A stretch of DNA of 5,001 nucleotides, from NCBI GenBank assembly GCA_028693335.1, contig JAQUVR010000054.1:1-5001 (forward strand), in the 5' to 3' direction. Positions 1 to 5,001 of this stretch are shown in pieces (position 1 is the first letter of the stretch; every line of letters begins with the position of its first letter). Under the pieces are notes generated by a model that made no database searches, had not been told where the DNA came from, and worked only from the letters and a program-made list of their open reading frames with translations. Origin of the DNA: Candidatus Iainarchaeum sp. GTDB taxonomy: Archaea; Iainarchaeota; Iainarchaeia; Iainarchaeales; CSSED10-239. The translations under genes were made by a program, and so were the position numbers.

Positions 1-12
1 CTCTTCCGATCT
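1..12. other. Illumina adapter 3' tail (CTCTTCCGATCT); technical artefact marking a contig or read end
   Basis: The window opens with ctcttccgatct. This is identical to the last 12 nt of the TruSeq-type adapters (...GCTCTTCCGATCT). Confidence 0.75.
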
Positions 13-13
13 A

Positions 14-694
14 ACAGTAATTGATCCGTTGTTTTTAATATTAATACCTTTTATTGCAGGATTAGTATTTTTCTTTTCATTATTAGCATTTTCATATTTG
101 GGGCCAATGCAAAAAGCTAAACAAAGAGGTATTCAAATAGATACTGAGCTCCCTTATGCGCTTAGACATTTAGCAACAGAACTTCAAGCAGGTATTGGTC
201 TTTATAAAACATTACAATCAATTGCAAAGAATGATTATGGTTTATTATCAGATGAATTGAGTAGAACTATTATTGAAATAGAAAATGGAACTGACACAAA
301 AACTGCTCTAAGACACACAGCTCTAAGAAGCCAATCTAAGAATTTTAATGTTGCATTGTTTCATATTATTAGAACATTAAATACAGGTGGTAATTTAGCA
401 CAAAGTATTGATAGTGTTGCAGAAACAGTTTCATTTGATTTAATGGAGTCTGCTAAACAATTTGGAGAAAAAATGAATTTTTTTGGAATTATCTTTATCT
501 TCATAGCAATTGTTCTACCAGTATTTTTAGCAGTATTATCTGCAATTGCAAATGCCCCAATTGGTCAAAATGGTGATCTGTTTTTACCAGGCGTTTTGGG
601 ACCACAATTACTAGCCATTATTTATTTGGTTGTTTTACCAATAATATTAGGCTTTATATCATTTTACATAAAAATTATTGAACCAAAAACATAG
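14..694 (+). CDS. Type IV filament membrane platform protein with a single T2SSF domain (TadB/TadC/FlaJ-like), 5'-partial
   Basis: The frame is open from the window edge (codons at 2, 5, 8...) to TAG at 692-694. The track start (TTG 29) is only the first start-like codon. The core LPYALRHLATELQAGIGLYKTLQSIA...LSDELSRTIIEIENGTDTKTALRH...IIRTLNTGGNLAQSIDSVAETV matches the T2SSF (PF00482) pattern lPdaL..la..l.aG.sl..AL......l..E......l..G.....AL.........Gg.la..l..la. It is flanked by one N-terminal and two C-terminal hydrophobic helices. The downstream paralog has two TM helices before the domain, so the N-terminus here is probably lost at the contig edge. Confidence 0.85.
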   Translation, partial: TVIDPLFLILIPFIAGLVFFFSLLAFSYLGPMQKAKQRGIQIDTELPYALRHLATELQAGIGLYKTLQSIAKNDYGLLSDELSRTIIEIENGTDTKTALRHTALRSQSKNFNVALFHIIRTLNTGGNLAQSIDSVAETVSFDLMESAKQFGEKMNFFGIIFIFIAIVLPVFLAVLSAIANAPIGQNGDLFLPGVLGPQLLAIIYLVVLPIILGFISFYIKIIEPKT

Positions 695-1605: not shown

Positions 1606-1618
1606 AAGAGGAAATAAA

Positions 1619-1798
1619 ATGAAATTAAGTTCAATTATTAAAGATGACAAAGCACAAGTATCTTTGGAATTTTTATTAATTTTAGGAGTTGTAGTTTTAG
1701 TAGCATTAATTGTTGGTTTTTATTTAAAGCAAACATCTGCAAATCAAGCAAACAAAGTTACAGAATATCAACAAAAAAGTACACAAGGAAACAACTAA
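1619..1798 (+). CDS. 59-aa mini-prepilin with a class III signal peptide (Flp-like, no globular head)
   Basis: Not in the ORF track. ATG 1619 is preceded by GAGG (1608-1611, 7-nt spacer). Translation: MKLSSIIKDDKA|QVSLEFLLILGVVVLVALIVGFYLKQTSANQANKVTEYQQKSTQGNN, ending at TAA 1796-1798. It carries the QxSxEFxxL motif of the archaeal class III signal peptide family (PF04021), followed by a helix of about 22 hydrophobic residues and a short polar tail. Confidence 0.85.
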   Translation: MKLSSIIKDDKAQVSLEFLLILGVVVLVALIVGFYLKQTSANQANKVTEYQQKSTQGNN

Positions 1799-1934: not shown

Positions 1935-2441
1935 ATGTTTAGTAAAAAGAAAGGACAAGGTGCACTTGAATACCTATTATTGATCGGTGGTGCAGTATTA
2001 ATCGCTGTTATTGTTATTGCATTATTAGTTGGAATGGGTGGTCAAAGTAGAGACACCGCAAAAGAACAAGCTGATAGAGTACAACAAGCAACAGATGTTC
2101 CACAACCTGCACAGATCGTTTCCGTTGCGGCTGCATATGCAAACTGTAACACAACTACAGGGGTAGCACAAATAGATGTTTTCTGGAGACCATTAGGTGA
2201 AGGCGGAAGTCATGAATTAAAAGTTTTAGATTCTAGAAACATAGAACAACAAATTAAAATAGGTACTAATGCTTATGGAGATTCAATGACATTAAATCCT
2301 AATGAATTGGATATACTAAATATTGATGTAAATATTACAACAGCAGGAAAATGTGGAGATTCTTACTACGTACAAATCATAACTGAAAAGAATAACCAAA
2401 CAGTTCCATCATCAAGATACAAATTTAGTTGGTCTAACTAA
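1935..2441 (+). CDS. Prepilin with class III signal peptide and C-terminal beta-sandwich (FN3/Ig-like) domain; candidate major pilin
   Basis: ATG 1935 is preferred over the track's TTG 1920, because that TTG overlaps the GGAGG RBS. N-terminus: MFSKKKG|QGALEYLLLIGGAVLIAVIVIALLVGMGG (basic leader, Q+1, E+5, Y+6, long hydrophobic helix). The C-terminal ~110 aa shows alternating beta-strand patterns: PAQIVSV..., IDVFWRP, HELKVLD, YYVQIITE, RYKFSW. It has 2 Cys and 3 N-x-S/T sequons (NTT, NIT, NQT). The stop is TAA at 2439-2441. Confidence 0.9.
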   Translation: MFSKKKGQGALEYLLLIGGAVLIAVIVIALLVGMGGQSRDTAKEQADRVQQATDVPQPAQIVSVAAAYANCNTTTGVAQIDVFWRPLGEGGSHELKVLDSRNIEQQIKIGTNAYGDSMTLNPNELDILNIDVNITTAGKCGDSYYVQIITEKNNQTVPSSRYKFSWSN

Positions 2442-2531: not shown

Positions 2532-3020
2532 GTGATCTATTTGAAAATACAAAAACTTCTTTCTAAAAAAGGACAAAGCGCCTTAGAATATTTATTGATT
2601 ATTGGTGGTGTTTTAGTAATTGCTGTTGTTGTAATTACATTAATTATGACTACTGGTAGATCTAATACTGAAAAATTAAATGAATCAGAGCAACAACATT
2701 CACAGTTGATTGATAGCACAATAATTCCACCTATGATTCTTAATGTTAATTGTTTTGAAGCAACAAATCAAATAATAATAACTTATAATAAATCTAGTAC
2801 TACTGGAATTGAAAACTATTGTTTGGTATTTAATGATACTATCAAAAATAGTCTTTGTTTACCACCAGTTGATGGGGTTAGTGAATTAACATTTACTGAT
2901 GCTGTAAAAAATCACTATGATTTAGTATCTGGTGAAAGATATAAGATTTCATTAGTTGCAAAAAGAGGAGAATATACTTCTCAACCAGCATTACCAAGTC
3001 CAACTTGTGTTGCTAACTAA
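2532..3020 (+). CDS. Prepilin with class III signal peptide and C-terminal beta-sandwich (FN3/Ig-like) domain; paralog of 1935..2441
   Basis: N-terminus: (MIYL)KIQKLLSKKG|QSALEYLLIIGGVLVIAVVVITLIMTTG, nearly identical in pattern to the upstream pilin. There is no in-frame ATG; the start is GTG 2532 or TTG 2541 (an in-frame stop lies at 2505-2507). The C-terminal domain is diverged (PPMILNVNCFE, QIIITYNKS, NYCLVFND, ELTFTD, GERYKISLVAKRG), with 4 Cys and 3 sequons (NES, NKS, NDT). The stop is TAA at 3018-3020. Confidence 0.88.
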   Translation: MIYLKIQKLLSKKGQSALEYLLIIGGVLVIAVVVITLIMTTGRSNTEKLNESEQQHSQLIDSTIIPPMILNVNCFEATNQIIITYNKSSTTGIENYCLVFNDTIKNSLCLPPVDGVSELTFTDAVKNHYDLVSGERYKISLVAKRGEYTSQPALPSPTCVAN

Positions 3021-3043: not shown

Positions 3044-3223
3044 ATGAATAAAATTATCTCAGATCAAAGAGCTCAAATATCTGTTGAATATTTAATTTTG
3101 ATTGTCTTTGGTATGATGCTTGTAATTACAACAGGAATAATTGTAATAAATATTAATACATTAATTGCTGTTGCAAAGTCAAAGATATTAGCATATAGAG
3201 ATAATATTATTTCTAGTTTATAG
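3044..3223 (+). CDS. 59-aa mini-prepilin with a class III signal peptide (Flp-like, no globular head), second copy
   Basis: Not in the ORF track. ATG 3044 to TAG 3221-3223. Translation: MNKIISDQRA|QISVEYLILIVFGMMLVITTGIIVININTLIAVAKSKILAYRDNIISSL. It has the QxSxEYxxL motif, a hydrophobic helix and a short amphipathic tail. It is the same length as the mini-pilin at 1619..1798. Confidence 0.82.
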   Translation: MNKIISDQRAQISVEYLILIVFGMMLVITTGIIVININTLIAVAKSKILAYRDNIISSL

Positions 3224-3232
3224 TAGAAAAAC

Positions 3233-4360
3233 ATGCTTAGTTATTTTAATATTATAATATTTTTTGTTTTGCTTATTTTTTTATTGTTAGCTACTTATTT
3301 TGATCTAAAAAAAAGAATAATACCAAACAAATTAATTTTAATTTTTTTAATGGTGTCTGTACTTTTGTTGGTTATTAGGTTTTGTCTGTCATTTTCATAT
3401 TCTTTTTTGTTTAACAATTTACTTTCAATTTTAATAACTTTTTTAATCTGTTTTTTATTGTGGGAATTTGGGGTTATTGCTGGTGGAGATCTCAAATTAT
3501 TTTTTGTAGTTTCTATTTTGTTACCATATAATTTATCCTTATTTTCAAATCTATCTAATTTTTCTCTTAATTATTCTTTTTTAAAATATCCAATTTTTGC
3601 AGTTATTTTATTATTAGCTAGTTTTTTTATGTTATTACCATATATATTATCTTATTCGTTATTAAATTTATTTTATAAAAAAAATCTCTTATTTTTAAAG
3701 AAAGAATTTTTTAATAGGATTAACCTTAATAACATATTCTATTGTGCAGTATCATTATACTTAATTTCTTCGATTTTAAATTTATTTAATGCCAGCATAA
3801 ATTTTTTTATTTTGTTCTTTTGTTCTTTTGTGTTTTATTATTTGATTTTATTATTAAAAAAAAAGCGGTTATCATATTTTTTTGGTTTTTTAACTGTGGG
3901 TTACGTGTTTTTATTAATTGCAACATTTATTACAAAAAAACAGTTATTTTCATTTATTGATCTTTTGATTATTTTGTGTGTAACTTTTGGTGTGTCTTTG
4001 TTTCTGTTTTTATTAAAATTAATAAAAACTAATGTTTTGACAACAGAAACGGAATTAAGTAAATTAACTGAAGGTGCAGTATTATCTAATAACTATTATT
4101 ATGATTCTAAGAAAAATACATTGCTTGTAGAAAAAATTAATTTTTTTAATCATTTAAAAAGATTAGTTATGGGGACCTATTACACTAATTTAAAAATTGA
4201 TTCTAACAAGGCCGGTGGTTTAACTTCTCAAGACATCGCTTTTTTAAATACTATGTATAAAAATAATTTAATAAGCAGTAAAATATATATAAAAAAAACA
4301 CTGCCATTTATGCCAGTTGTTTTAATAACATTTATAATTTTGAATTTTATAACATTTTAA
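3233..4360 (+). CDS. Archaeal prepilin/preflagellin peptidase (MEROPS A24, GxGD aspartyl protease; FlaK/PibD/EppA-like) with a long C-terminal extension
   Basis: 375-aa polytopic membrane ORF. The first catalytic Asp context is ATYFD24LKKRIIPNKL (gat 3302-3304). The second is IAGGD86LKLFF (gat 3488-3490), i.e. the GxGD motif, with 62-aa spacing typical of FlaK/PibD-type enzymes. The terminal helix begins LPFMPVV, resembling the conserved (I/L)PFxP of A24 peptidases. An uninterrupted 1.1-kb ORF in DNA this AT-rich is itself strong coding evidence. Confidence 0.88.
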   Translation: MLSYFNIIIFFVLLIFLLLATYFDLKKRIIPNKLILIFLMVSVLLLVIRFCLSFSYSFLFNNLLSILITFLICFLLWEFGVIAGGDLKLFFVVSILLPYNLSLFSNLSNFSLNYSFLKYPIFAVILLLASFFMLLPYILSYSLLNLFYKKNLLFLKKEFFNRINLNNIFYCAVSLYLISSILNLFNASINFFILFFCSFVFYYLILLLKKKRLSYFFGFLTVGYVFLLIATFITKKQLFSFIDLLIILCVTFGVSLFLFLLKLIKTNVLTTETELSKLTEGAVLSNNYYYDSKKNTLLVEKINFFNHLKRLVMGTYYTNLKIDSNKAGGLTSQDIAFLNTMYKNNLISSKIYIKKTLPFMPVVLITFIILNFITF

Positions 4361-4371
4361 AACGTGTAAAT

Positions 4372-4842
4372 ATGAATAAAAAAATTAAAGGTCAAATCTC
4401 TGTAGAATTTATTGTTTTATTAGCTATATTTATGTTGTTTTTTCAAGCAACAATTTTACCTACAATAGAATTCTCTGAAAATATTATTAAAGATACTTAT
4501 AATTTAAGTAAAACTAGTGATAGCGTATCAAGATTAGCAACCCACATAGAAAATTTTTCAAATAGTTCTGGTTTTGGAAGAAGAAGCATATTTTTTTATT
4601 TACCAGATACTGCAATAATTTCTGCGTGTGATTATGATTCCGGAAACCCCGTTATAAAATACAATGTGACAATATCTAAGCAAAGACCAATACCATTAAC
4701 TTGTAATGATCAAGGGGTTTGTAATTTTGTAAAAAAAATAGAATCAGATACCCCAATATCTTGTGAAGTAATTGGTCCAGGGTTTTCTGGTGCAATTATC
4801 TTAGAAAAATCAGAAACTGGTCAAATAATTATAAAAAAATAG
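4372..4842 (+). CDS. Class III signal peptide protein (minor pilin-like, Cys-containing globular domain)
   Basis: N-terminus: MNKKIKG|QISVEFIVLLAIFMLFFQATILP, with the QxSxEFxxL motif. The C-terminal ~125 aa has 4 Cys (SACDY, LTCNDQGVCNF, ISCEV) and 4 sequons (NLS, NFS, NSS, NVT). The gene runs from ATG 4372 to TAG 4840-4842 and starts 11 nt after the peptidase stop. Confidence 0.85.
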   Translation: MNKKIKGQISVEFIVLLAIFMLFFQATILPTIEFSENIIKDTYNLSKTSDSVSRLATHIENFSNSSGFGRRSIFFYLPDTAIISACDYDSGNPVIKYNVTISKQRPIPLTCNDQGVCNFVKKIESDTPISCEVIGPGFSGAIILEKSETGQIIIKK

Positions 4843-4849
4843 ATTTATT

Positions 4850-5001
4850 ATGAATAAGCGAGGACAAATAACAATAGAATTTATTATTATTCTTGGTTTT
4901 ATATTGTTATTTGTTTTTTTTGTATTAACTAGTATCCATAAAGAGCTTAGTCAAGATCGTGCATTGTTATCAATAAAATCAAGAACTGTTGATTTAATTA
5001 A
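4850..5001 (+). CDS. Class III signal peptide protein (pilin-like), 3'-partial
   Basis: Not in the ORF track. ATG 4850 lies 7 nt after the upstream stop. Translation: MNKRG|QITIEFIIILGFILLFVFFVLTSIHKELSQDRALLSIKSRTVDLI..., 50 codons open to the window end. It has the Q+1/E+5/F+6 motif followed by a hydrophobic helix. Confidence 0.75.
   Translation, partial: MNKRGQITIEFIIILGFILLFVFFVLTSIHKELSQDRALLSIKSRTVDLI

Follow-up and report, generated by a model that had tools for sequence, protein, structure and literature searches.

Archaeal pilins consisting of a helix only have been established since 2011-2013. The major pilin of Methanococcus maripaludis, EpdE, is a protein of 74 amino acids, of which 62 remain in the mature form (PMC3875500) after loss of a 12-residue leader (PMC4390842). 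The pilins EpdD, MMP0528 and MMP0903 have mature forms of 54-63 residues (PMC3875500), and the sizes of these small pilins were compared by the authors who described them with those of the Flp pilins (PMC3875500, PMC4390842). Pilins of M. maripaludis that are processed by the peptidase EppA possess a charged residue at position -2, glycine or alanine at -1, an obligatory glutamine at +1 and a glutamate at +5, with the cleavage sites of EpdA to EpdE reading RAQI, KGQV, KGQV, KGQL and KGQI, respectively (PMC4371748).

Two platform genes with a single T2SSF domain each, together with short major pilins, are common to Epd-like and Tad systems, and Tad has been inferred to descend from an Epd-like archaeal system (PMC6668835). 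A census from 2026 reported a ‘system 1’ in methanogens, Thermococcales and Nanobdellati (DPANN), which is characterized by two platform genes and a primary pilin without a globular domain (arCOG06620), and headless Epd pilins were described in system 1 loci of DPANN archaea (PMC13705601). Pilins of the arCOG06620 type were found by Makarova et al. to be approximately 70 amino acids in length and to be usually encoded by stand-alone genes (PMC4858521). The Flp pilin of Caulobacter has a mature form of 45 residues and forms a helix-only filament with archaeal-like packing, while PilA-N of Geobacter sulfurreducens is a T4a pilin with Phe1 and Pro22 whose partner head, PilA-C, is encoded separately and has no helix of its own (PMC10710030).

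The stretch of DNA analysed here (the window; 5,001 nt, G000:C90:1-5001) belongs to an assembly that is 85% complete and, at 646 kb, of a size usual among DPANN archaea; its source is probably a member of Iainarchaeota. The window is AT-rich, with every gene located on one strand (Table 1), and it encodes a prepilin of 59 amino acids, referred to below as the mini-pilin, with the complete sequence MKLSSIIKDDKAQVSLEFLLILGVVVLVALIVGFYLKQTSANQANKVTEYQQKSTQGNN.

Table 1. Features identified on the window, with the evidence for each.
Feature	Position	Strand	Evidence or remark
First platform gene, TadB/EpdJ-like, one T2SSF domain	2..694	+	PF00482, 61.9 bits; cut at contig start
Second platform gene, TadC/EpdK-like, one T2SSF domain, 302 aa	697..1605	+	PF00482, 60.7 bits
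Shine-Dalgarno-like GAGG	1608..1611	+	7 nt ahead of the ATG; read from the sequence
Mini-pilin gene, 59-aa prepilin	1619..1798 (including stop codon)	+	ORF list, PF04021, family-wide match
Leader peptide, 12 aa (MKLSSIIKDDKA), basic, ending K(-2) A(-1)	1619..1654	+	[KR][GA]/Q site; predicted cleavage
Mature N-terminal hydrophobic helix, 24 aa (QVSLEFLLILGVVVLVALIVGFYL)	1655..1726	+	Kyte-Doolittle up to 3.9
Polar C-terminal tail, 23 aa (KQTSANQANKVTEYQQKSTQGNN)	1727..1795	+	GRAVY -1.93
168-aa pilin with head domain (KKG/QGALEYLLLIGG)	1935..2441	+	PF04021, 33.4 bits; 136-nt spacer ahead
162-aa paralogous pilin	2532..3020	+	PF04021, 27.9 bits
Second 59-aa headless class III ORF (RA/QISVEY...)	3044..3223	+	PF04021, only 14.1 bits
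A24 prepilin peptidase, 375 aa, EppA-like	3233..4360	+	PF01478, 45 bits; PF06819, 30 bits
Two class III proteins (156 aa; the other cut at window end)	4372..5001	+	PF04021, 20.8 and 23.8 bits

The mini-pilin ORF runs from an ATG at 1619 to a stop codon at 1796-1798, with no alternative in-frame start being present upstream of 1619 in the open frame. As the upstream T2SSF gene stops at 1605, a gap of 13 nt separates the two genes. A first-pass annotation, made from the letters of the window, had given the same GAGG with its 7-nt spacer, the same 13-nt gap and the same length of 59 amino acids, all of which agree with the sequence. Its suggestion that the product be searched with the Pfam class III signal peptide family PF04021 (Class_IIIsignal, formerly UPF0333) was borne out, as residues 11-36 matched with 33.4 bits (E = 4e-8), the gathering score being 23.7 bits. 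No Rfam family was found to overlap the gene in a search of positions 1400-2000, and a scan of 1400-2600 that covered promoters and terminators of the bacterial type returned nothing above shuffled sequences.

The mature mini-pilin would consist of 47 residues (5.2 kDa), of which 24 form a hydrophobic half and 23 a polar half. Prepilins were regarded as EppA-type when a charged residue at -2, Gly or Ala at -1, Gln at +1 and Glu at +5 were followed by a hydrophobic stretch (PMC4371748, PMC3875500), and the mini-pilin of the window reads K-A/Q-V-S-L-E at the predicted cleavage site (marked by the slash). Its mature helix carries Q+1, S+3, E+5 and F+6 and is closed by the motif G-x-Y-L-K, while the tail of the window copy contains no Cys, no Pro and no N-glycosylation sequon. 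AlphaFold2, run with an alignment of nine sequences, predicted a single continuous helix over residues 3-56 (mean pLDDT 78, with 86-97 over residues 11-40), in which the polar tail appears as an extension of the N-terminal helix. Headless pilins were defined as having a mature form of approximately 40-60 residues, without a globular domain and predicted as a single continuous helix; the mini-pilin, with 47 mature residues, one predicted helix and neither Pro nor Cys, falls within this definition. Its sequence and predicted fold place it among the EppA-type pilins that consist of a helix only, and the pilus to which it would belong is Epd/Tad-like (system 1). The first-pass annotation had likewise described a class III prepilin with a bare helix and polar tail, an architecture like that of Flp, within a pilus locus, and this description is supported. 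Its further statement that such an architecture is rare in archaea is contradicted by EpdE, EpdD, MMP0528 and MMP0903 (PMC3875500) and by the system 1 loci of DPANN archaea (PMC13705601).

Comparison of the mini-pilin with EpdE (MMP1685, arCOG06620) showed that both have a class III signal, a 12-residue leader, a charged residue at -2, Gly or Ala at -1, Gln+1 and Glu+5 (PMC3875500, PMC4371748, PMC4390842). Both also lack a globular domain and share the PF04021/UPF0333 label, which JGI applies to the family of the mini-pilin. The Epd system resembles that of the window in its two single-T2SSF platforms (EpdJ and EpdK), in its ATPase EpdL and in EppA, a dedicated peptidase of large size (PMC6668835). 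Dissimilarities identified were the length of the mature form (47 against 62 residues), the location of the gene, which lies inside the operon directly behind the platform genes whereas epdE stands alone at a distant locus, and the lack of a conserved N-glycosylation sequon, while EpdE bears about three glycans. An aromatic residue at +6 (Phe here and Tyr in the other families of the order) is absent from the pilins of M. maripaludis.

With the Flp/Tad pilin of Caulobacter crescentus (PilA, 8U1K), the mini-pilin shares a mature single helix of 40-60 residues with a hydrophobic N-terminal half and a polar C-terminal half, the absence of Pro22, the presence of Glu5 and a split platform resembling TadB/TadC (PMC10710030, PMC6668835). 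It differs in that Tyr6-Gly7 is missing from the genus of the window, that Gln occupies +1 instead of a small residue, and that the host is an archaeon without a secretin and with an archaeal-type peptidase bearing an Arc_PepC domain. The Flp family PF04964 gave no match to the mini-pilin at E <= 1, the protein having E5-F6-L7 instead of E-Y-G. The PilA-N of G. sulfurreducens is similar in being a short pilin (65 aa) without a globular domain; a split pilin of the Geobacter type was nevertheless rejected, as the mini-pilin has Gln1 and no Pro, and the products of 1935-2441 and 2532-3020 carry a class III signal and helix of their own.

The best match among PDB sequences was 6W8U, a type IV pilin of Pyrobaculum arsenaticum (E = 2.8e-4), whose N-terminal helix aligns by SLE...VGWYLY to SLEFLLI...VGFYLK; this is a 142-aa pilin with a globular domain, and the similarity covers 23 helix residues only. 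The Caulobacter pilin 8U1K was absent from the PDB sequence matches at E <= 10. Foldseek found no match in the PDB for the AlphaFold2 model, which is to be expected as the model is a lone helix. The best NCBIfam match was to TIGR04205 (classIII_w_PIP), a short class III protein (~67 aa) linked to archaeosortase D and PIP-CTERM. This assignment was rejected, given that its 35.1 bits lie below the 65-bit cut-off and the match is limited to the N-terminal 35 positions; no archaeosortase context was seen in the mini-pilin locus.

In a search with a profile built from close homologs, 21 of the family's 22 genomes, covering five genera, gave a strong match over the full length, and the remaining genome (G001, 86% complete) only a weak one. 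Related loci were read individually in 20 cases, and the frame was intact in all of them, as was the motif [KR][GA]/Q[VIL]S[LV]E; the leaders have 10-28 residues and the mature products 44-47. Alignment of the family orthologs showed Q13, S15, E17, G33, K37 and Q38 to be invariant. Pro and Cys are found in none of the orthologs, and N-glycosylation sequons are missing from 10 of 19. Position +6, which is F in the window copy, is occupied by V, A, L or T in orthologs. The full-length ortholog group (at least 76 bits) was limited to the window's own family in a phylum-wide search. Among 1.84 billion representative proteins, 45 matches were obtained at E <= 1e-3, of which 42 are 41-73 aa in length, so that the similarity marks a family of short proteins and not merely a generic pilin N-terminus. 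A precomputed PF04021 match was present on nearly all of 102 relatives.

The first-pass annotation had regarded the ORF as unannotated and dropped by gene callers. This does not hold, as gene calls for the exact protein exist on 21 public contigs, which derive from several samples (the identical protein is encoded, for example, in those behind SRR24962751, SRR11845628 and ERZ27252299). NCBI lists orthologs as ‘class III signal peptide-containing protein’ and JGI as ‘UPF0333 family’, the NCBI sources being labelled as metagenome-assembled genomes of Candidatus Iainarchaeum or Diapherotrites.

Selection on the gene was examined using Nei-Gojobori counts without distance correction (pN/pS). Pairs between genera are saturated (median pS 0.61), and therefore only within-genus pairs were used. 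For the 12 such pairs pN/pS was 0.23 overall, with 0.13 for the helix, 0.28 for the tail and 0.35 for the leader; as these pairs are related to each other, the summed value is descriptive and not a test statistic. The value for the tail indicates that this polar part is also constrained. Corrected dN/dS for the closest pairs ranged from 0.06 to 0.31. On four strain-level contigs all five variable sites of the ORF were synonymous third positions, with no nonsynonymous change, and base differences amounted to 0.6-1.7% in the ORF against 4.4-5.8% in the 136-nt spacer behind it. The ORF at 1619-1798 is thus a real, conserved and syntenic gene under purifying selection with a class III motif. Both the frame conservation across orthologous loci and the purifying selection on which the first-pass annotation had made its reading depend were found, the former in 20/20 loci and the latter in the within-genus ratio of 0.23 and the exclusively synonymous strain changes.

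The gene order of the complete operon was obtained from locus L001, in which a T2SSE ATPase (610 aa), the first platform gene at its full length of 383 aa and the second of 302 aa precede the mini-pilin. These are followed by the pilins of 168 and 162 aa, the second 59-aa ORF and the A24 peptidase of 375 aa, and the 3' part encodes proteins of 156, 115 and 194 aa, an OB-fold protein and a TctA-like transporter. Using the definition of a system 1 locus from PMC6668835 and PMC13705601, two single-T2SSF platform genes, a T2SSE ATPase and an A24 peptidase with Arc_PepC were all found to be present. The best NCBIfam model for the peptidase was EppA, with 47.8 bits, far below the cut-off of 450. The class III proteins at the end of the window have N-termini that are weakly TadE/TadF-like, these being weak matches.

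Within the family, the mini-pilin lies directly behind the second platform gene in all 20 loci. In 17 of these, no more than 22 nt lie between the platform stop and the mini-pilin ATG, the distance often being 1-3 nt and the two genes overlapping in one case, and the next pilin usually begins 112-233 nt beyond the mini-pilin. Twelve loci of other families were sampled from the phylum-wide search, and the order ATPase, platform, platform, mini-pilin, QGALEY pilin, mini-pilin 2 and A24 peptidase was shared by 11 of them, one of the 11 being without the QGALEY pilin and one stopping at a contig end. In these other-family loci the first class III ORF encodes 47-62 aa and the QGALEY-type pilin 65-116 aa. 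The first mini-pilin there carries QTSLEYLLILGG...G-x-Y-L-K and has a mature form of approximately 35-43 aa. The agreement among 11 of the 12 loci indicates that both the position and the G-x-Y-L-K motif of the mini-pilin have been conserved across the order. In the other families the operons are compact, so that the spacer ahead of the large pilin is peculiar to the family of the window. At locus L035 (3837-4170) the interval from platform to peptidase holds two headless pilins only.

In some sister families the QGALEY-type pilin was observed to be itself headless (65-69 aa), as at L028 (3894-4091) and L036 (3957-4166). Judging from these sequences, this pilin seems to have gained or lost a head domain during the divergence of the order.

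In the mechanism proposed for the mini-pilin, the 59-aa precursor would be translated jointly with the two half-size platform genes and the ATPase gene, and its hydrophobic segment would insert it into the membrane. The large EppA-like A24 peptidase of the operon would then cut after Lys-Ala (Ala12), removing the 12-residue leader while leaving Gln+1 and Glu+5, and the ATPase and platform would raise the 47-residue product from the membrane into a filament. In such a filament the N-terminal 24 residues would lie in the hydrophobic core, with the polar C-terminal half of the helix facing outward, and the variable 168- and 162-aa pilins would make up most of the exposed surface. Cleavage of the precursor and its incorporation into a filament are steps that we infer from the sequence.

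Under the reading preferred here, to which we assign a probability of roughly 0.55, the mini-pilin would be a core or minor subunit that is conserved, varies little and is produced in step with the machinery. A chance ORF, or the remnant of a longer pilin gene that has been broken, could be argued from the small size of the gene and its absence from the ORF track given to the first-pass annotation, and from nothing else. The E-value of 4e-8 for PF04021, the retention of stop position and length in 20 loci of five genera, the exclusively synonymous differences between strains, the spacer of 112-233 nt with no continuing frame behind the ORF in most loci and the gene call on 21 public contigs all speak against it, and the conservation data rule it out for practical purposes. 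It is improbable, too, that the mini-pilin is an accessory of the platform or peptidase that is retained in the membrane and never polymerised, serving as an assembly regulator or as a decoy substrate of the peptidase. Translational coupling to the second platform gene across the order, the very short length (only 35-47 mature residues in the order) and the invariance between strains would suit such an accessory, but a mere membrane anchor has no need of a complete, conserved EppA-type motif with Glu+5, and the constraint on the polar tail (pN/pS 0.28) also argues against it. No such role is known among the class III proteins of either the Epd or the Tad systems.

More difficult to separate from a core or minor role is that of a major subunit, either of the filament or of one of two alternative filaments, in which case the larger pilins would be minor, adhesive or tip subunits in the manner of EpdA-C and TadE/F. 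Headless pilins are the major subunits of both characterised relatives with a split platform, Epd (EpdE) and Tad (Flp) (PMC6668835, PMC3875500, PMC10710030), which argues against a minor role for the mini-pilin. The larger pilins encoded within the M. maripaludis locus (130-156 aa) are minor, and those of the window are similar to them in size; the tail has the strong polarity that the surface of a filament needs; and the mini-pilin is the constant pilin behind the platform order-wide, in contrast to the QGALEY pilin, which ranges from 65 to 170 aa in length and does not occur in L035. The genome of the latter locus (G044), however, has larger class III proteins at other places. Between strains the 168-aa pilin is hypervariable, as would be expected for an abundant, exposed subunit, whereas the mini-pilin shows no amino acid variation, and this favours a minor or core role for it. 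The same role is favoured by the single copy of the gene and by its tight coupling to low-copy machinery genes, with two other headless candidates existing in the genome (3044-3223, and one at L026 on C63). In the ups operons of Sulfolobus the major pilin genes likewise follow the platform gene, and for this reason the operon position would suit a major as well as a minor subunit. On balance, a major subunit is a possible but somewhat unlikely reading, and that of a core or minor subunit is retained.

A broader proposal is that an archaeal filament consisting of helices only is built mainly from the 47-residue peptide (35-43 residues in sister families). Such a filament would correspond in archaea to the bacterial Flp/Tad pilus and, in a living organism, closely model the ancestor of that pilus. 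A genome-reduced DPANN archaeon would employ it, jointly with the OB-fold and TctA genes that close the operon, for DNA capture and import or for host attachment. Taken as a whole this is speculative, and we regard it as rather unlikely. The pilus may serve DNA uptake; host attachment and DNA scavenging are both plausible, and it is on this role of pili in DPANN archaea that the locus has a bearing. At the operon end of L001 (12169-13691), the gene of the OB-fold protein (PF01336, 115 aa) was seen to overlap that of the TctA-like transporter (PF01970, 392 aa), and TctA was also observed near the operon in L027, L031, L035 and L037.

The mini-pilin does not add a new kind of system, and is a well-supported addition, conserved order-wide, to a small set of headless archaeal pilins. 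Three of its features are modestly new, namely a place directly behind the platform genes that is fixed order-wide, a size like that of Flp, and an E-Y/F pair at positions +5/+6. With 44-47 mature residues in the family and approximately 35-43 in sister families, these pilins are as short as bacterial Flp and shorter than EpdE, and the sister-family orthologs carry the Glu5-Tyr6 pair typical of Flp. On account of this size and residue pair, the pilus operons of Iainarchaeota are a useful comparison for the proposed archaeal origin of Tad. With regard to annotation practice, genes of 50-60 codons of this kind are worth keeping when these genomes are annotated.

The first-pass annotation had labelled the mini-pilin ‘copy 1’. 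The label is misleading, as the product of the second 59-aa ORF (3044-3223) is only 21% identical to the mini-pilin and has the N-terminal motif alone in common with it. In relatives the 3044-3223 product is 57-71% identical and its gene occupies the same place ahead of the peptidase, with ‘RAQVSFEYL...’ found across the order, and its tail is hydrophobic or amphipathic, in contrast to the polar tail of the 1619-1798 product. These sequence comparisons place it in a conserved family of its own.

A third headless class III ORF was identified on G000:C63 (L026, 2208-2396), reading MILNKILKDQRA/QISAEM... and encoding 62 aa from an internal ATG. It lies outside the pilus operon, adjoins a Rad50-like gene of divergent orientation and has a 132-aa class III-like ORF behind it, and ORFs resembling it were seen in relatives, for example at L038. 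The genome was also found to contain a second, smaller A24 peptidase (G000:C89:3933-4238, within an open frame of 284 aa) and two to three T2SSE ATPase genes (G000:C33, C97 and C64), of which that on C97 (a 610-aa frame) probably belongs upstream of the window. The second peptidase together with several T2SSE genes suggests the existence of two type IV filament systems, comparable to FlaK/EppA in Methanococcus.

Among the genes of the locus, the 168-aa pilin (1935-2441) was the most variable between strains, with 89-97.6% nucleotide identity and indels, while neither of the two mini-pilins showed any amino acid change between near-identical strains. The number of large-pilin paralogs was also found to vary, with two in the window and three in L006 and L022. 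At strain level, no gene of the locus exceeded the A24 peptidase in pN/pS, its values being 0.18-0.32 and those of most others 0.02-0.14. Lastly, positions 1-12 of the window read CTCTTCCGATCT, corresponding to the 3' end of an Illumina adapter, where a homologous public contig reads GTTTGTTTTGTT; because of this difference, these first 12 bases are taken to be an adapter remnant inside the first platform gene and not part of the genome.
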